Below, piece after piece: positions 2,772 through 14,108 of a stretch of DNA of 64,000 nt. The stretch comes from Candidatus Gastranaerophilales bacterium (GTDB lineage: Bacteria; Cyanobacteriota; Vampirovibrionia; Gastranaerophilales; Gastranaerophilaceae): the NCBI GenBank assembly GCA_944323255.1, contig CALURU010000012.1, positions 3,459 through 67,458 on the forward strand. Direction: 5' to 3'. Under the pieces are notes generated by a model, which saw only the letters and a list, made by a program, of their open reading frames with translations, was not told the origin of the DNA and made no database searches. The stretch's first letter is position 1, and every line of letters starts with the position of its first letter. Position numbers and translations under genes: made by a program.

Positions 2772-3314
2772 TTGGGTATAGAAAGAGGGGAATTTTTTAA
2801 AATGAATGCTAATAAAGTACTTTTACCTAATGACGTAAGAAAACTTTTAAACGTTGATAATAAAGAGATAGTTGAATTATGTAAAAAAACTTCAGTTACC
2901 CCGAAAAAAGACCACAAGGGTCAGATATATTTTTCCGTGGATGAAGTTAAAAAACTGAGAAGTGCAAAAACCTCGGTTATGACAGGAATGAAGAATAGCG
3001 AAAAGAAAGTGACATTACCCATGATGACAAAACCAAATTCTCAAACCGTTGTTAACGGTTTATTAGAAACCCTCAACAAAATGGAAAACAATATTACCAC
3101 TTCCATGACCAAACTTATTGATGAAAAATTAGAAGGCATGGATGATGTTGTTTTGGAGCTTGTAAGATGCAAGACAGAAAACGAAAATCTTAAAAATAAA
3201 GTTAATGAATTAAACAAAGAAAACTTTAAGCTGAAAAATGTTCTAAACAGCTTTAAGCCGCTTATGTGCGGATTCTATATCAAAAAAGAAGAAGAAACTA
3301 ATTTTATGTTGTAG
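2772..3314 (+). CDS. MerR-type HTH plus coiled-coil protein, RacA-like
   Basis: N-terminal NDVRKLLNVDNKEIVELCKK..PKKDHKGQIYFSVDEVKKL has MerR/RacA HTH spacing; C-terminal heptad coiled coil (MDDVVLELVRCKTENENLKNKVNEL). Likely start is the ATG of MNANK. Confidence 0.55.
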   Translation: MGIERGEFFKMNANKVLLPNDVRKLLNVDNKEIVELCKKTSVTPKKDHKGQIYFSVDEVKKLRSAKTSVMTGMKNSEKKVTLPMMTKPNSQTVVNGLLETLNKMENNITTSMTKLIDEKLEGMDDVVLELVRCKTENENLKNKVNELNKENFKLKNVLNSFKPLMCGFYIKKEEETNFML

Positions 3315-3369
3315 ATAATGAGCAGTGAAGTTAGAAGGGTACGATAATAATATTATAAATTCCAATCAC

Positions 3370-3390
3370 TCTTCACGCTTCACCCTTCAC
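3370..3390 (-). repeat. Three GTGAAG(A/C/G) heptamers in inverted orientation upstream of recA
   Basis: tcttcac-gcttcac-ccttcac. Confidence 0.7.
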
Positions 3391-3411
3391 CGGAATGAGA
3401 AAGGTTAAAAA

Positions 3412-4431
3412 ATGGCAGTTAAGGAAGAAACCGCAGTAAATACAGCAGATGAAAGAAGTAAGGCGCTAAAACTTGCAATAGAGAAAATTGAAAAGGATTT
3501 CGGCAAAGGCGCTATTATGAAGCTCGGTGACAAACCTTCTGTCAGTGTAGAAACTATTCCGACAGGTGCTCTGGCGCTTGATGTTGCTCTTGGCGTAGGT
3601 GGTATTCCGAGAGGACGTATTATCGAAATCTACGGACCGGAATCTTCAGGTAAAACAACTCTTGCACAGCATATTGTTGCAGAATGTCAGAAACAGGGCG
3701 GAATTGCAGCGTTTGTTGATGCAGAACACGCACTTGACCCTGAATACGCAAGAAATCTGGGCGTTAATGTAGATGAACTTTTGATTTCACAGCCTGATAC
3801 AGGTGAACAGGCTCTTGATATAACGGAAGAACTCGTTCGCTCCGGTGCGGTTGACGTAATCGTTGTTGACTCTGTTGCAGCTCTTGTTCCGAAAGCCGAA
3901 ATAGAAGGCTCTATGGAAGACCAGCAAATGGGTTTGCAGGCAAGATTAATGTCTAAAGCTTTAAGAAAATTGACCGGTATAATAGGTAAAACAAGAACTA
4001 CAGTAATTTTTATCAACCAGCTTAGACAAAAAATCGGCGTTATGTACGGCAATCCTGAAACTACAACAGGCGGTAACGCTCTTAAATATTATGCATCAGT
4101 TCGTTTGGAAATCAAACGTGTTGAAGGTTTGAAAGGTGATGGCGAAGAAATCGGAAACCACGTAAGAGTACGTATTTTGAAAAACAAAGTTGCTCCTCCT
4201 TTCAGAACGGCAGAATTTGATATTATTTTTGGAAAAGGTATTTGCAAAATCGGCAATATCCTTGATGTAGCTGTTGATTTGGATATTGTTAAAAAAGCCG
4301 GGTCATGGTTTAGTTTTAACGATGATAAATTAGGTCAGGGCAGAGACAAGGCTAAAGAGTTTCTCGGTGCTAATCCGGAAATACTCAATCAGATTGAAAC
4401 CCTTGTTCGTGAAAAGCTTGCAGCAAATTAA
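3412..4431 (+). CDS. recA: Recombinase RecA
   Basis: [53 protein letters not shown]. Confidence 0.99.
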
Positions 4432-4470
4432 GAGGCGTATTGCCCCCTCTTTATTGAGATTTACTTTTTG

Positions 4471-4499
4471 TTGACAAAAAAGTATTATTATGATATAAA
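4471..4499 (+). promoter_or_regulatory. Near-consensus sigma70 promoter downstream of recA, with no CDS following on this strand
   Basis: TTGACA (4471-4476), 17-bp spacer, TATAAA (4494-4499) with extended -10 TG. Confidence 0.65.
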
Positions 4500-4505
4500 G
4501 TTAGT

Positions 4506-4556
4506 GGGGTAAATGTATATTTTTGAGTCTTGCACACACTGCAAGACTTTCCTTTT
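4506..4556 (+). ncRNA. Candidate ~50-nt small RNA beginning GGGGUAAAUGUAU
   Basis: Lies between the promoter at 4471-4499 and a terminator hairpin at 4526-4548 with U-tract; purely a prediction. Confidence 0.35.
4526..4556 (+). terminator. Intrinsic terminator (recA and/or sRNA)
   Basis: AGTCTTGCA-cacac-TGCAAGACT followed by TTCCTTTT. Confidence 0.75.
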
Positions 4557-4619
4557 GCTTATTGCGTTTTAACCTGGTTTAAGCCCCAAAAAATTGCTTT
4601 TAAGCCGAAATGTGGCAAA

Positions 4620-6125
4620 TTACAGGTCGTTCTTTTTATTTTTGCTGCTCTTTTTGTCCTTAATACGTTTAGGCATGCTCTCTTCGTGCTCGTCGCAGCC
4701 CAGAACTTCATTCAGGTGGTTAATAAGCGCTTCCGAATGATAACACATTGCATGCTCGGACTTGTGATGGATGTCAATTATATGATAGTGCATTGCCATT
4801 TCTATCTGAATCAAAGCCAGATTGTAGTTGTAAATTGTGTCTATATAATGAGTGATAGCCATTATGTAATCTTTTCTTGCATCCTGAAGCGCAACATAAT
4901 TTAATTCCCCTGTTTTGTATTTGCTTTCTACAAGTTTTAAATTTTTTAATGCCTGGTCGGCTTCCAGCTCTGAGGTCGGAATCTGATTCTCCGCTTTGTC
5001 AAAATTGTTGAATGCACGTTTTACTTCGTAATACAAATCTTTTTTAAACAAAACTATTTCATTATTCGCAAGATTAACCTGCGCATCCGCTCCCTTAATA
5101 GAATGTTTAAGTTCCATCAAATTGACGTTTGAACTTAAATTCACACCGACCTGCAAGCTGTTGTTAGAAACTTCGTTTGTGTTGTTAAACCCATAGCCTA
5201 CATTTCCCGAAAGTGTTGGCAGGTAAGTTTTTTTGATATATTTTAAAGACTGAATCATTGCATCTTTTGTAGAAGTCAAAACTCTTAAATCCGGACTGCT
5301 CTCATATGCAAGTTCTACTGCATCTTCACGTGAGAATGGAAAAATATATTTGGAATATGTTTTTGCCTTATGCAGAGATGAATTATACCCCCAATCGTTA
5401 TCATAATTGAAGGTTTGGGTGTTTTTTATATTAAAATCCGGCTGGTTATCCAGATACATTGAATTAGTCAGGTCAACTTTTGCATTATAATAATTGTTTT
5501 GCGCCTCCAGAAATGCAACTTCCGCCTCGCTTAAATGAAGTTCTGCAGTCGTTCTGTCTGCACCTGATTTCGAGTTTTTTACAAATTCTCTGTTTATCTC
5601 TACGTTATTTTGTGCAATTTGCATCAACGCCTTAGCTCTAAGCATGTTATAATATTTGACCTTAATATCAAAAAGAGTTGCGCAGAGACTGTCCATAAAT
5701 TCGTATTCGGCACCGATTTTATAAAACTCTTCCATCTTTATATAAGAAGTAGTTTTACCAAAGTCCCATATCATTTTGTTGACAGAAACTCCTACATTCG
5801 GAAGCTCTCTGTAATAATGGTTATAATATACATTATCAGAATTGTTTTCGTTATAAAATCCAACTCCTGCACTTATTATAGGAAAATACGCAGACCTTGC
5901 TATTCCGAGATTGCTTTTTGCAATGTCCAGATTATACTTCTGCCTTTTAATTTTTGGACTGTTTTTGAACGCAGACGCCACGCAATCCGTCATTGAAAGA
6001 ACTGTTCCATCTTTGATTTCTCTTGCGTGAAAAAGCTCGTCATCATCGTCGTGGGCGGATGATGAGAGGGCTAAATTCCAGCAAAAAAATGCAAGAAAAA
6101 AAAGTGTGAATAATCTCTTTCTCAT
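4620..6125 (-). CDS. TolC-family outer membrane efflux protein
   Basis: Signal peptide; two OEP repeats (LGIARSAYFPIISAG, KKTYLPTLSG); C-terminal KYKTGELNYVALQDA. Confidence 0.88.
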   Translation of the reverse strand: MRKRLFTLFFLAFFCWNLALSSSAHDDDDELFHAREIKDGTVLSMTDCVASAFKNSPKIKRQKYNLDIAKSNLGIARSAYFPIISAGVGFYNENNSDNVYYNHYYRELPNVGVSVNKMIWDFGKTTSYIKMEEFYKIGAEYEFMDSLCATLFDIKVKYYNMLRAKALMQIAQNNVEINREFVKNSKSGADRTTAELHLSEAEVAFLEAQNNYYNAKVDLTNSMYLDNQPDFNIKNTQTFNYDNDWGYNSSLHKAKTYSKYIFPFSREDAVELAYESSPDLRVLTSTKDAMIQSLKYIKKTYLPTLSGNVGYGFNNTNEVSNNSLQVGVNLSSNVNLMELKHSIKGADAQVNLANNEIVLFKKDLYYEVKRAFNNFDKAENQIPTSELEADQALKNLKLVESKYKTGELNYVALQDARKDYIMAITHYIDTIYNYNLALIQIEMAMHYHIIDIHHKSEHAMCYHSEALINHLNEVLGCDEHEESMPKRIKDKKSSKNKKNDL

Positions 6126-6974: not shown

Positions 6975-7044
6975 ATCTCGGATTATATCATATAATTTGG
7001 TTTTGTGATATAATAATCGAAAACACTGGTTGAGGACTGATTTT

Positions 7045-7554
7045 ATGATAGAAATGAAGGTGATGGGTATAGCGCTTGATGTGAGAACGAATTCTCCTAT
7101 AGTTGTTCTACACGATCTTGATAACAGAAAAGCTTTGCCTATATGGATAGGTTCGGCAGAAGCAAGTGCTATTATAAGATGTATTGAAGGGCTTGTGGTT
7201 GCACGTCCGATGACGCATGATTTAATTGCGAATATAATCGAAAAAACCGGTTATACGCTCGAAAAAGTAGAGATTAATGATGTCGAAAAAGAAACTTATT
7301 TCGCAACCCTGTTTCTTGTAAAAGACGGTGAAACTCTTGAAATTGACGCTCGTCCTTCTGACGCTATTGCAATTGCTATGAGAGCAGAAGCACCTATATA
7401 TGTTACTGCAAATGTGCTTATGAACGGCTCTGTTTCTACTGATACGGCAAAAGATGAAGAAGAAGCGCAGGAATTTAAAGATTTTATCCAGAATATCAAA
7501 CCTTCTGATTTTGAAAAAATGATGAAAGGCAAACATGAGGAAAATGATCAATAA
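7045..7554 (+). CDS. Bifunctional nuclease family protein (DUF151)
   Basis: LPIWIGSAEA, RPMTHDL, TYFATL, IDARPSDAIAIA; ATG at 7045 after GAGG (ORF track starts 7030). Confidence 0.93.
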   Translation: MIEMKVMGIALDVRTNSPIVVLHDLDNRKALPIWIGSAEASAIIRCIEGLVVARPMTHDLIANIIEKTGYTLEKVEINDVEKETYFATLFLVKDGETLEIDARPSDAIAIAMRAEAPIYVTANVLMNGSVSTDTAKDEEEAQEFKDFIQNIKPSDFEKMMKGKHEENDQ

Positions 7555-7582: not shown

Positions 7583-7604
7583 CCCTCTGCCCGCAGGCAG
7601 AGGG
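7583..7604. terminator. Hairpin between convergent DUF151 and RHH genes
   Basis: CCCTCTGCC-cgca-GGCAGAGGG with upstream A-run. Confidence 0.65.
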
Positions 7605-7683
7605 GTATGTATATTTAACCTGTGTAAATATAACTGTTTTAAATCTCAATTACAAGGTTGTTTTATATGTTTTGTGCAAAGCA

Positions 7684-10443: not shown

Positions 10444-13400
10444 ATGTACATTAAGCAGCTCGAAATCGACAATTTTAAGTCGTTTGCGAACAAGGTCGAA
10501 ATACCTATGCTGAAAGGTTTTACTACGATTTCAGGACCTAACGGCTCCGGAAAAAGTAATATTATCGACAGTATTCTTTTTGCACTCGGCTTGTCTACAA
10601 GCCGTACTTTGAGAGCTGAAAAACTCTTCCACCTTATATCAACCTACAACAAGAGAAATGAAGCTTACGTAAAAGTAACATTCGGCGAAACCGATGACGG
10701 AGATTTTTCAGTCGCAAGACGTATCCGAAAATCTTCGCAGGGGTTCAACAGCATTTATTACCTCGATGATAAAATCGCAACATTGAGTGATATTCACGCC
10801 AAATTAGAAAAATACAACATTACTCCTAACAGCTATAATGTAATGATGCAGGGCGATGTTATGAGTATTACAAACTGTACTCCAAACGAGCGCCGCAAAA
10901 TTATTGACGAAATAGCGGGAGTTGCGGATTTTGACAGAAGAATAGAGCAGGCAACAGGTGAATTGGATACGGTAGAAAAGCGTGTTGTTAATTCCACTCT
11001 TATTCTGAATGAAGTTAATGCCCGTCTGGAACAGCTTAACGAAGAAAAAGAAGTTGCACTAAAGTATCAGAAATTAAAAGATGAAAAAACTGCGCTCGAA
11101 AGCCAGATTAATACGGTTAAATTCTTCGACCTGCGCAGAAATCTTGAAAAAGCGCACGAAAATATCTTAGAATTTACCAAAAGAAAAAAAGAAGAAGAAG
11201 TTAAATCAAAAGACCTTGAAGAGCGCTTGAGACTTATCAAAGAGAGGTATGATGAGATTTCTAAAACCATTACCGAAAAAGGTGAAGGGCATCAGCTTGA
11301 ACTCAAACAGAAAGCGGAAGAAATAAAAGGTTCAATTGACAGAAAAAATTCTTCTATAGCTTACGCTGACAAACAGATTCAGGACAATTTAAAAACTATT
11401 GAAAACGCTAAAAACGGTATTGAGGTTCAGAAAGATAAAATCAAAGATGCCGAATTAAAAATTTCGCTCAAACAGGATCAAATTAAGGGAATAGAAAAAA
11501 ATATTGAAGAGCAGAAAGCTATTTTGCACAAGATTCTGGAAGATATGTCCGGTCTGAACGAAACAGCCGAGAAGCATATTGAAAAAAGAAACAGTTTGAG
11601 AAAAGAGCTTGAAGAATTGCAAGATAAGGAGACAAAGCTTATCCAGAAACAGGCGCCGATGGAAGCAGATTTATCAACAAAGAAAAAAGCGCTTGAAGAT
11701 GCAAAGGCAAAGCTTGCGGAATTAGAGAGTTTCAAGGCGAATTTTTCGGAGACAAGATCCTCAAAAGAACTTTTGATAGAACAATTAGGCAAAGAACTTG
11801 ACGATTTCAAAATCATCCTTAAAAATACATTGTATGAGTATGATAAAACTAAAAATGAAATCACAGACCTGGACTACGACCTTCAAGCTGCACGTAAGAA
11901 AATATATCAGCTTGAGGCAGTTAAGCAAGCGAACGAAGAAGCTAACCTCGGACGTGCGGTTGATACAGTTGTAAACGCAAACATTCAGGGGGTTCACGCT
12001 CCGCTTGTAAAGCTCGGTCAGGTTGACGAAGAGTATTCAACAGCCATGGAAATTGCAGTCGGCGGCAGAATGTCGCACATAGTTGTTGACGATGAGCACG
12101 TCGCCTCAACCTGTATTGAACTTCTTAAATCCTCAAATGCAGGCAGAGCAACATTTGTCCCGCTTAACAAAATCGTAAAATGCCCAAGAAGCCTAAACCT
12201 TCCAAAAGAGAAAGGTGTAATTGATTTTGCAATTAACCTGATTGATTTTGACGATGAGTACCTTAACGCCTTCTATTACGCAGTCGGCGAAACACTTGTC
12301 GTTGAAGACCGCTCGGTCGCAAATAAATTAATCGGCAAGTACAGAATGGTTACACTCTCAGGCGACCTGTTTGAAAAATCAGGTTCAATCACCGGCGGTG
12401 CTGTCAGAAAAACAGGGCTTAAATTCTCGCAGAATTCCGACAGCGAAATTGATACATTTAAATCAAGGCTTAAAGAAATGGAATCAAAATACGCTGCACT
12501 CGTCTCCAAACGCTCAACTCTTGAGGCAAAAATGGAGGACGTAAGAAGCAAATATTCCAATTCCACAACAGAATTTAACAAAGCAAAATTAGAACTTACA
12601 AGTCTTGAAACCAATTTTGCAAACACGCAGCAAAATATAGAAGAAAGACAAAATTTCATCAAAACTACAGAACCGGAAATTTCTTCTCTCGAAAAATCTT
12701 TGGACAAAATGGAAGAAGAGCACATAACGATTTCCGAAAAAATGACCGATCTTCAAACTTCGATAGAAGAAGTTGAAAAGCTCATGAATGATGCGGACTT
12801 GAAGGATTTGAAAGAAAAAACAGCAGGAGTTGAGGCGGAAATTAAGCGTTATGAGAAAAATATGGCTGACACAAACCACGAAATAGAAGGTTTAAAGCAG
12901 ACAATTGATTTTATCAAAAATACAACTCTTGAGACCATGAACGAAACAATCGACCGTTCGGAGAAAGCAAACTGCGAGCTGGAACTTGACAAGGCAAAAT
13001 TTGCGGAAGAAATTAAAGGTCTAAAAGAGCAGCTTGAAGTTCTTGAGGTTCAGATAAAAGAAATTACCGAAAAATTAGGAGAACTTCTTAAACAACGAGA
13101 CGAAATTAACAATGACCTCGTAAAAGTCGAAACGGACAAGAACCTGAAAGCAAACGAGATAGAAAAAATTGCAGAACAGATTGAATCCTTCAAAGCCCGC
13201 AGAAGAGAGTTAGAGCCGCAGCTCGAGGAGACTAAAAACATTCTGGAGGAAGCAGGGGTGAATATTAACGACCTCACTCCGGTTGAAATGTCAATTGAAG
13301 AAATTACTTCCCGCATCCAGCGTTTGCAAAAAAGAATGGATGACCTGGGCGCAGTTAACATGAAAGCGCTTGAAGATTTTGAAAATGTTTCTGCAAGACA

Positions 13401-13938
13401 ACAGGAGCTTCAAGGGCAAATAGAAACACTTAGCCGTGAAAGAGAACAAATTCTTGAGAGAATGAAAGGCTACGAGGATTTGAAAAAAGAAACCTTCCTC
13501 AAAACTTACAATGTTTTAAACGAAAACTTTAAAGATATTTTCCACAAGCTTTCAGACGGTGAAGGAACACTTATTCTTGAAAACGAAGAAAAACCGTTTG
13601 AAGGCGGACTTGACATAGAAGCACAGCCGAGAGATAAGAAAAAACAGCGTCTTGCAGGTATGTCAGGCGGTGAAAAAGCACTGACGGCACTTTCTTTTGT
13701 TTTTGCAATCCAAAAGTACATGCCGGCACCTTTCTACGCTTTTGACGAAGTTGACGCAAGCCTTGACGGTATAAACGTTGAAAAGCTTGCCCATATTGTA
13801 CAATCTCAGGCAGAGACGACACAATTTATCGTAGTAAGCCACAGAAAACCAATGATTGAATCTGCTAACAGGACAATCGGCGTAACCCAGAAAGAAAAAG
13901 GCATCTCCAAAGTTACCGGTGTCAAGCTCCGCGACTAG
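10444..13938 (+). CDS. smc: Chromosome segregation protein SMC
   Basis: Walker A GPNGSGKS, coiled coils, hinge (GRATFVPLN, GGAVRK), signature MSGGEKAL, Walker B AFDEVDASLD. Confidence 0.98.
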   Translation: MYIKQLEIDNFKSFANKVEIPMLKGFTTISGPNGSGKSNIIDSILFALGLSTSRTLRAEKLFHLISTYNKRNEAYVKVTFGETDDGDFSVARRIRKSSQGFNSIYYLDDKIATLSDIHAKLEKYNITPNSYNVMMQGDVMSITNCTPNERRKIIDEIAGVADFDRRIEQATGELDTVEKRVVNSTLILNEVNARLEQLNEEKEVALKYQKLKDEKTALESQINTVKFFDLRRNLEKAHENILEFTKRKKEEEVKSKDLEERLRLIKERYDEISKTITEKGEGHQLELKQKAEEIKGSIDRKNSSIAYADKQIQDNLKTIENAKNGIEVQKDKIKDAELKISLKQDQIKGIEKNIEEQKAILHKILEDMSGLNETAEKHIEKRNSLRKELEELQDKETKLIQKQAPMEADLSTKKKALEDAKAKLAELESFKANFSETRSSKELLIEQLGKELDDFKIILKNTLYEYDKTKNEITDLDYDLQAARKKIYQLEAVKQANEEANLGRAVDTVVNANIQGVHAPLVKLGQVDEEYSTAMEIAVGGRMSHIVVDDEHVASTCIELLKSSNAGRATFVPLNKIVKCPRSLNLPKEKGVIDFAINLIDFDDEYLNAFYYAVGETLVVEDRSVANKLIGKYRMVTLSGDLFEKSGSITGGAVRKTGLKFSQNSDSEIDTFKSRLKEMESKYAALVSKRSTLEAKMEDVRSKYSNSTTEFNKAKLELTSLETNFANTQQNIEERQNFIKTTEPEISSLEKSLDKMEEEHITISEKMTDLQTSIEEVEKLMNDADLKDLKEKTAGVEAEIKRYEKNMADTNHEIEGLKQTIDFIKNTTLETMNETIDRSEKANCELELDKAKFAEEIKGLKEQLEVLEVQIKEITEKLGELLKQRDEINNDLVKVETDKNLKANEIEKIAEQIESFKARRRELEPQLEETKNILEEAGVNINDLTPVEMSIEEITSRIQRLQKRMDDLGAVNMKALEDFENVSARQQELQGQIETLSREREQILERMKGYEDLKKETFLKTYNVLNENFKDIFHKLSDGEGTLILENEEKPFEGGLDIEAQPRDKKKQRLAGMSGGEKALTALSFVFAIQKYMPAPFYAFDEVDASLDGINVEKLAHIVQSQAETTQFIVVSHRKPMIESANRTIGVTQKEKGISKVTGVKLRD

Positions 13939-14020
13939 GGGGGGTAAATGTATTTGGTCGGTAGGTAAAACTACAAGTTAGGCGTTTTACAAGGGGGGTA
14001 AATGTATCGGGTTGGTGAGT
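13938..14020 (+). repeat. Diverged direct duplication starting GGGGGGTAAATGTAT, period 54 bp
   Basis: GGGGTAAATGTAT at 13941 and 13995; downstream TTGGTCGGTAGGTA vs CGGGTTGGTGAGTA. Confidence 0.8.
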
Positions 14021-14037
14021 AGTGAATGGTGGGTATG

Positions 14038-14108
14038 GTGACTAAGTGATTAAGTGACTGAGTGACTAAGATTAGTGAAGCGTGAGGTGTGAAGCGTGAA
14101 GGGAACAT
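14038..14108 (+). repeat. GTGA octamer x4 plus heptamer x4 array upstream of the ORF6N gene
   Basis: GTGACTAAGTGATTAAGTGACT is identical to 8288-8309; ends GAAGGGAACATT as at 8072-8083. Confidence 0.85.

Follow-up and report, generated by a model that had tools for sequence, protein, structure and literature searches.

What is encoded in the short intergenic stretch behind recA in this genome, and, if it is a small RNA (sRNA), what would that RNA act on? The window analyzed here is a stretch of 64,000 nucleotides, positions 3459-67458 of contig C12 in a 2.23-Mb genome with 35.5% G+C and an estimated completeness of 98.5%. Its recA homologues place it in the Gastranaerophilaceae, a family of the order Gastranaerophilales, gut bacteria that belong to the Melainabacteria/Vampirovibrionia, the non-photosynthetic relatives of the cyanobacteria. 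Since the family is uncultured, its regulatory RNAs can be found by comparison only, and our literature searches recovered no sRNA described for the Melainabacteria/Vampirovibrionia. An earlier note had read the locus as a consensus promoter that starts a dedicated sRNA of ~50 nt exactly at a recurrent motif, and had proposed that this RNA serves either as a CsrB-like decoy or as a template or guide for 54-bp duplications. The features discussed below lie in the window as follows.

3412..4431, plus strand: recA, a 339-aa ORF, the gene upstream of the sRNA.
4432..4458, plus strand: a weak hairpin, AAGAGG-N10-CCTCTT followed by TATT, read from the sequence.
4471..4476, plus strand: the -35 box TTGACA, read from the sequence.
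4477-4493, plus strand: the promoter spacer of 17 nt, read from the sequence.
4491..4499, plus strand: the extended -10 element, consisting of TG (4491-4492), one base and TATAAA (4494-4499), read from the sequence.
4506..4524, plus strand: the putative start, G4506, and the single-stranded 5' tail GGGGUAAAUGUAUAUUUUU.
4506-4518, plus strand: the recurrent motif GGGGTAAATGTAT, RNA nt 1-13; six bases separate it from the -10 box, its first G being the seventh.
4515-4529, plus strand: the proposed pairing region, RNA nt 10-24, delimited by complementarity.
4525..4549, plus strand: the terminator hairpin, 4525-4534 paired with 4540-4549 around a 5-nt loop (10 bp, of which nine are Watson-Crick pairs and the closing one is G-U).
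4550..4558, plus strand: the U-rich tail UCCUUUUGC, from the sequence and the terminator scan.
4620-6125, minus strand: a convergent gene of the OEP/TolC family (Pfam PF02321, 1.8e-46), not part of the element.

The promoter with its extended -10 element, the motif beginning at 4506, the hairpin with its U-rich tail and the convergent tolC gene that comes next are all present as the earlier note had described them. We scored promoters as the sum of the -35 box, the -10 box and the TG, with a maximum of 13. The promoter behind recA reached 13/13, and none of 5000 random genome positions exceeded 12. Elsewhere in the genome, the motif has 84 first or solo copies; these scored at most 9, no better than random positions, so the copy behind recA is the only one with a promoter, and the arrangement of promoter and motif is more than chance. 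This promoter does not appear in the list produced by our promoter scan only because the scan requires a -10 box that ends in T, and that of this promoter is TATAAA. The terminator scan of the window did report the hairpin at 4525-4549. The sequence that follows it, 4550-4560, reads TCCTTTTGCTT, and the 3' end of the RNA is expected near 4553-4556, which would give a length of ~50 nt. Folded in isolation, the RNA has a free 5' tail and the hairpin. Upstream, the weak hairpin at 4432..4458 is possibly recA's own weak terminator. That stretch is not conserved, and several relatives (e.g., L076) carry a clear recA terminator 5' of the sRNA promoter.

From 110 related loci, we took the 200 nt that follow recA; recA orthologues are 84-98% identical in Gastranaerophilales MAGs. 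In about 30 species of the same genus, a near-invariant block that runs from the -10 box to the U-tract lies 3' of recA and reads TGGTATAAAGTTAGTGGGGTAAATGTATATTTTTGAGTCTTGCA-loop-TGCAAGACTTTCCTTTT, the loop being represented by the variants CACAC, CATAC, CACAT, CATTC, CATTT, CACAA and CATAT. A spacer of 17 or 18 nt, with a sequence that differs between species, separates the TTGACA box from the -10 box, and the flanks of the block are unalignable on both sides. The upstream synteny, comprising a 180-aa ORF and recA, is kept in all relatives and ends at the sRNA terminator (window 4560-4620 onward); none of the downstream genes, the OEP gene included, was found within 3 kb downstream of recA in any other species. 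This synteny break may mark a rearrangement or integration hot spot.

Beyond the genus, the exact 13-mer occurs once, rarely two or three times, in most genomes of the family (0-1 times for the reversed control). Single matches from 15 further genera displayed the same arrangement of promoter and hairpin beside unrelated genes, such as dnaN. The sRNA gene was unlinked to recA in all 15, and linkage to recA is thus specific to the source genus. Column statistics over 50 distinct loci from more than 20 genera revealed that the TG is kept in every locus, TATAAA in 46 of the 50 and TTGAC(A) in 80-90%, with a spacer of 17 nt in 43 loci and 18 nt in seven and a variable spacer sequence. The six bases before the predicted start also vary across these loci, and positions +1 to +17 of the RNA are invariant. 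Since bases vary up to -1 and are invariant from +1 onward, the boundary of conservation coincides with the predicted start site. Further downstream, the U-tail is conserved as UUUC(C/U)UUUU and the loop sequence varies freely.

The terminator itself is supported by covariation. In an alignment of 23 sequences, RNAalifold recovered the terminator helix only; six of the ten hairpin pairs carried compensatory changes on both sides, and 98.7% of cells were paired. None of 500 shuffles matched the observed covariation values, and slid registers were 36-52% paired. The earlier note had held that a terminator conserved without its promoter boxes would speak against an sRNA. In the relatives, the terminator is conserved together with all three promoter elements (-35 box, TG and -10 box). 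A covariance model built from the 23 sequences found exactly one strong match in each of the 49 family genomes of one sample, and none in the 152 genomes that represented other families of the class. When the family was sampled evenly, about 32 of 60 genera gave strong single matches, and in the window, the sole strong match was 4506-4561 (75 bits, E = 3e-12). By comparison, therefore, the predicted sRNA gene is single-copy in roughly half of the Gastranaerophilaceae genera, independently of its neighbours.

Overall, the promoter-hairpin block is very probably a real, independently transcribed sRNA gene. The dedicated ~50-nt sRNA of the earlier note is thus supported by the conserved promoter, the start boundary and the covarying terminator, an unusually clean comparative record for a gene that is also single-copy in each genome; transcription, start site and RNA size are inferred from these features. 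The boxes and their spacing are kept with a free spacer sequence, as for a promoter of its own, and the intrinsic terminator is a covariation-supported hairpin. The RNA is not protein-coding, as the terminator lies inside the only ORF that begins with AUG and no stop codon is conserved; substitutions are free in the loop and compensatory in the stem. We rejected an sRNA derived from the recA 3'UTR in view of the conserved promoter and of the 15 other genera in which the gene is unlinked to recA. The comparison with Rfam that the earlier note had suggested returned no match for the RNA: at the gathering threshold there was no match in the window, and at a permissive threshold only a weak local match at 4429-4469, off the RNA (E = 2.7). 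It is a new RNA family of a known kind. Two traits of it are unusual: its putative partner sites adjoin stop codons, and its first 13 nt are common to a repeat family.

Several RNA-binding proteins and nucleases bear on how such an RNA could work. No match to PF17209 (Hfq) was found in the 98.5%-complete genome, tblastn was negative too, and an Hfq-dependent sRNA was accordingly discarded as a class. RNase III is encoded in the genome. CsrA is encoded at C17:2030-2185 (73 bits in a Pfam search of the genome), a gene that tblastn with E. coli CsrA had missed. A tblastn search of the genome for ProQ was also negative, a weak negative because tblastn missed a CsrA that Pfam detects.

To look for partners, we scanned the genome for complementarity to the 24-nt sRNA tail. 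The top non-self site, C4:8829-8857, lies between the TAG that ends an ~80-aa ORF, which it follows directly, and the terminator of that ORF (gene at C4:8587-8900, the ORF ending in ...GGYFAGYYNNQPNIVGRRLFIEV and the stop). The site comprises GACTCAAAAATATA, the complement of nt 11-24, and TTTACCCC, the complement of nt 1-8. Within a single genome such complementarity is not significant, as an exact complement of 14 nt or more also exists for 27% of shuffled tails, and the case for pairing therefore rests on the position of the sites, their conservation and their matching variants. As for conservation, the 15-mer GACTCAAAAATATAC abuts or overlaps the stop codon of the C4 orthologue in 21/21 genomes of the genus, where (G)ACTCAAAAATATAC stands at the orthologous stop with at most one change; around it, the ORF has diverged at its synonymous positions, and so has the remainder of the 3'UTR. 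A second site in the source genome lies on contig C9, in the 3'UTR of a small acidic protein ending in ...ELDYFFDNVMDTVVDFFKEEVSV and the stop, with a homologous site in genome G405, and a weaker third site follows a single-copy transposase of the IS110 family.

The sites in other genera follow the sRNA of their own genome. In genera whose sRNA carries the variant AUUUAUAAGUC (vs AUUUUUGAGUC), the exact second matches read GACTTATAAATATAC, often extended by ATTTAC, and lie 2-6 nt after stop codons and before terminators (loci L217, L218 twice, L241, L244 and L296-L298). These sites stand behind one orthologous gene in three genomes of genus g18, behind two paralogous genes in g135, behind single genes in g15 and g16, and behind a permease gene in g18. 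Similarly, a site with the local variant follows flgC in six g133 genomes and one g124 genome. Sites in g15, g16, g18, g124, g133 and g135 match the local sRNA variant. Indeed, every 3'UTR match fits the local variant, and non-fitting variants occur only inside coding sequence. The complementary sites are thus conserved and co-vary with the sRNA across genera.

In a rough tally, about 5 of roughly 100 sampled genomes from genera without the sRNA had any match to the 15-mer pattern, a rate comparable to that of matches within coding sequences in sRNA-bearing genomes. Recurrent matches to CACTCAAAAATATAC were mostly of this kind: of six in the g124 search, four lay inside conserved coding sequence and are irrelevant here. 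The match at L305 (g133) apparently has a coding or unclear context, and that at L304 (genome G386, g133) adds another site to the 3' region of flgC. The flgC gene of the source genome has no pairing site. Target genes differ between genera and form no coherent regulon; most encode small proteins without a Pfam family, and Pfam assigned no family to six candidate host proteins. The host proteins are hydrophilic (NPF/GY-rich or acidic), or else FlgC, a permease or a transposase.

Some observations made around these sites are recorded here for their own sake. In genera g12, g19, g20 and g24 (L141, L149, L150, L154, L159 and L160), one or two genes for acidic proteins of ~120 aa lie ~170 nt 3' of the sRNA on the same strand. 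Their products end in ...PLQNFFDEMAGYVSEALV, which by eye resembles the end of the C9 protein, and no site was found behind them. Within the window, a G+C-rich hairpin at 7589-7618, CCCTCTGCC-CGC-AGGCAGAGGG, runs into GGGGTATGTATATTTAA, a sense-strand near-copy of the sRNA tail minus 2 nt in the 3' region of ORF 7030-7554. The transposase gene of the IS110 family lies outside the window (C3:131180-132700; single-copy, PF01548 and PF02371) and has ~350 nt of non-coding 5' sequence. The site behind it, 62 nt after the stop, is an imperfect antisense copy of the sRNA tail, GGCTCAAATTAATATACATTTTTCCCC. Elements of this family use bridge RNAs, and some target repeats.

The position of the sites, their conservation in orthologues and their matching variants make base-pairing the best-supported mechanism. 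In the model we propose, a sigma-70-type promoter (TTGACA, 17 nt, TG-n-TATAAA) would start transcription at G4506 and yield an RNA with a 19-24-nt single-stranded 5' tail (GGGGUAAAUGUAUAUUUUUGAGUC) followed by the intrinsic terminator hairpin. Nucleotides 10-24, often together with nt 1-8, would pair in trans with target mRNAs at sites that lie at the stop codon or within about 45 nt after it, before the terminator of the gene; pairing of nt 20-24 requires opening of the base of the terminator stem. The resulting duplex of 15-23 bp would most likely alter the fate of the mRNA 3' end, for example through RNase III cleavage that removes the protective terminator. Since RNase III is present and Hfq was not detected, duplex-dependent processing of the mRNA 3' end is favoured, its outcome and direction being putative. 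We hold with modest confidence that 3'UTR pairing would be the mechanism of this sRNA, and consider it probable that the account as a whole is right, namely that a free-standing ~50-nt sRNA gene, conserved in the family, acts in trans by base-pairing with 3'UTR sites. The sRNA would then come with a concrete set of candidate partner sites.

Could the direction of action be reversed, or could the sites be inert? The 3'UTR stretches might act on the sRNA as sponges that set its level, or be neutral inverted fragments of its gene, with the real targets being short seed matches elsewhere. In favour of this, a complementarity as long as 15-23 nt is found more typically in sponges or antisense pairs than in seed targets, the host genes vary from genus to genus, and one of the hosts is an IS110-family transposase gene. 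The sites could have originated from copying at the DNA level, as inverted pieces of the sRNA gene; such copying would produce matching variants too, but not the selective retention of a 15-mer. Precisely this retention, at the orthologous position in all 21 genomes while the rest of the copy decays, speaks against neutrality. We regard this reading, taken together, as unlikely, and a sponge role remains compatible with the data.

The motif at the 5' end of the RNA raises a separate matter. With up to one mismatch, GGGGTAAATGTAT occurs in 146 copies in the genome, vs five for the reversed control. They form the heads of a family of dispersed repeats, often in tandem, whose period is 51-56 nt. 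The window contains an example:

13941..14007, plus strand: two units of the ~54-nt repeat, with heads identical to sRNA nt 1-13.

These units abut the TAG stop of a 1164-aa ORF (10444-13938). The 13-nt identity between the sRNA and the repeat heads is real and far too long for chance. The unit consensus is GGGGTAAATGTATTGGGTTGGTWRGT, and its identity with the sRNA ends after nt 13, from where the repeat continues TGGGTTGGTWRGT and the sRNA ATTTTTGAG. The covariance model aligns repeat units by the 13-nt box only, at ~15 bits. By eye, the hairpin arms of units and sRNA look alike; homology of the units to the whole sRNA was rejected by the covariance model and the unit consensus. The converse idea, that the sRNA is itself a unit of the repeat, was likewise dismissed, as it cannot be aligned to the consensus over its full length. 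Short heptamer arrays of the GTGAAG/GTGA type also occur in the window, at 3305-3400 upstream of recA and at 14010-14100 after the repeat units.

Large expansions of the repeat are found only in the source genus (24-51 exact copies), with smaller ones in g18, and most sRNA-bearing genomes have one to three box copies in total. In the g18 genomes (L174-L202), which carry 18-33 copies each at up to one mismatch, the box heads several different downstream sequences, so that what the genera have in common is the box and not the unit body. With crude ORF calls, intergenic boxes have no orientation bias with respect to their flanking genes and split about evenly among the four orientation classes, which contradicts the idea that the motif always lies on the transcribed strand. 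For 30 first or solo sense boxes, an ORF of 80 aa or more ends no further than 200 nt upstream, and 12 of these boxes are found -5 to +4 nt from that stop. Thirteen boxes lie at most 6 nt from such a stop, and 11 of these stops are TAG, reading TAG directly followed by GGGGTAAATG (in the window, 13936-13953). Antisense boxes do not cluster at stop codons.

It is conceivable, if unlikely, that sRNA and box-headed repeats belong to a single system, either because the repeats spread copies of the sRNA 5' end (in sense) and binding sites for it (in antisense), or because the sRNA guides or primes the insertion of units beside stops. If the repeats do spread parts of the sRNA, a single conserved RNA would be wired to many transcript 3' ends; in either case, if true, the system would represent a bacterial example of repeats that give rise to an sRNA network or arise from one.

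The decoy function offered in the earlier note supposes a protein that recognizes the single-stranded GGGGUAAAUGUAU box of the sRNA as well as the boxes of repeats or of mRNAs, so that the sRNA titrates this protein in a CsrB-like manner. The exact sharing of the 13-nt box between the sRNA 5' end and about 146 repeat heads is in line with this, as are the presence of CsrA, the sense-oriented boxes that often abut TAG stops and the invariance of nt 1-9, which are only partly paired in many sites. Against it, the RNA carries one box, although known decoys carry many sites; with one to three boxes in total, most sRNA genomes offer little to compete with; and the intergenic repeat boxes lack a strand bias relative to genes. 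The decoy model does not predict conserved complementary sites with matching variants either. These points make a decoy distinctly improbable. A decoy of the CsrB/RsmZ type in particular, with its multiple GGA motifs, was rejected, as 4506-4556 contains no GGA even though CsrA is encoded.

Even less probable is the other function put forward in the earlier note, in which the sRNA was the template or source from which the ~54-nt units were copied, or guided their insertion. Units and sRNA share a stretch that starts precisely at the predicted +1 and excludes the promoter, the unit length is close to that of the RNA, a chance identity of 13 nt is very unlikely, and expansions occur only in lineages with the sRNA. 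However, identity to the units stops after nt 13, the sRNA is near-identical and strongly constrained in more than 30 genera, in most of which this single-copy RNA occurs without any expansion, and in a non-systematic look neither a reverse transcriptase nor a recombinase turned up in linkage with the sRNA gene. A side role as decoy or template in the source genus is conceivable, if unlikely. Of the original proposal, the sRNA with the motif as its conserved single-stranded 5' part has thus held up, and the decoy and template functions have not.

Least credible of all is that there is no independent RNA gene here, only the terminator and 3'UTR of recA with a promoter that arose by chance, an element that acts as DNA (an operator, say, or an integration site) or a tiny ORF (MYIFESC...): the position directly behind recA with its weak hairpin, the synteny break exactly after the element and a GGGG-UAA-AUG that resembles a ribosome-binding site and start codon can be cited for it, but the same promoter recurs away from recA in 15 genera, the boxes are conserved while the spacer sequence varies, and the putative ORF contains the terminator, with compensatory changes in the stem, loop changes that are not codon-like and no conserved stop.

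How does the RNA favoured here, a trans-acting sRNA that pairs behind stop codons, compare with known systems? It resembles CsrB/RsmZ in being a small RNA with a dedicated promoter and a motif that recurs elsewhere in a genome that encodes CsrA; unlike them, it has one motif copy, no GGA and no presentation of the motif in hairpin loops. With REP/BIME and MIRU-like dispersed repeats, and with the ~54-nt family of its own genome, it has in common a 13-nt head, GGGGTAAATGTAT, followed by a hairpin. Unlike the members of the ~54-nt family, the sRNA copy alone has a promoter, is single-copy and orthologous across genera, and differs after nt 13.

RybB and OmrA/B of enterobacteria are minimal trans-encoded base-pairing sRNAs that consist of a 5'-end seed and an intrinsic terminator. 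Like them, the RNA described here has its own promoter and an invariant single-stranded 5' end at the predicted +1, followed only by a terminator hairpin and a U-tail; it is likewise short, single-copy and family-wide, with complementary sites in several unrelated mRNAs. It differs from them in having no sequence or Rfam relationship to them, no Hfq detectable in its genome, a much longer complementarity (15-23 nt) and sites after stops rather than in translation start regions.

Its putative mode of pairing recalls antisense RNAs whose binding to an mRNA 3' end leads to processing by RNase III, namely RatA/txpA and SR4/bsrG, type I systems of Bacillus subtilis, and GadY/gadX of E. coli. In common with these pairs, a long, near-perfect duplex is predicted between stop codon and terminator, RNase III is present in the genome, and several hosts encode small proteins. 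Unlike the hosts of RatA/txpA and SR4/bsrG, those of the sRNA do not encode short hydrophobic toxins, and one is flgC. A type I antitoxin RNA was rejected, as the hosts are hydrophilic proteins, FlgC, a permease or a transposase and the sRNA is encoded elsewhere. These known RNAs are encoded in cis and overlap their target, whereas the recA-linked sRNA is encoded in trans, at an unrelated locus. If its pairing next to stop codons is true, it would provide a trans-encoded example of a control known mostly from cis-antisense pairs, as well as a handle on the repeat family that shares its first 13 nucleotides.
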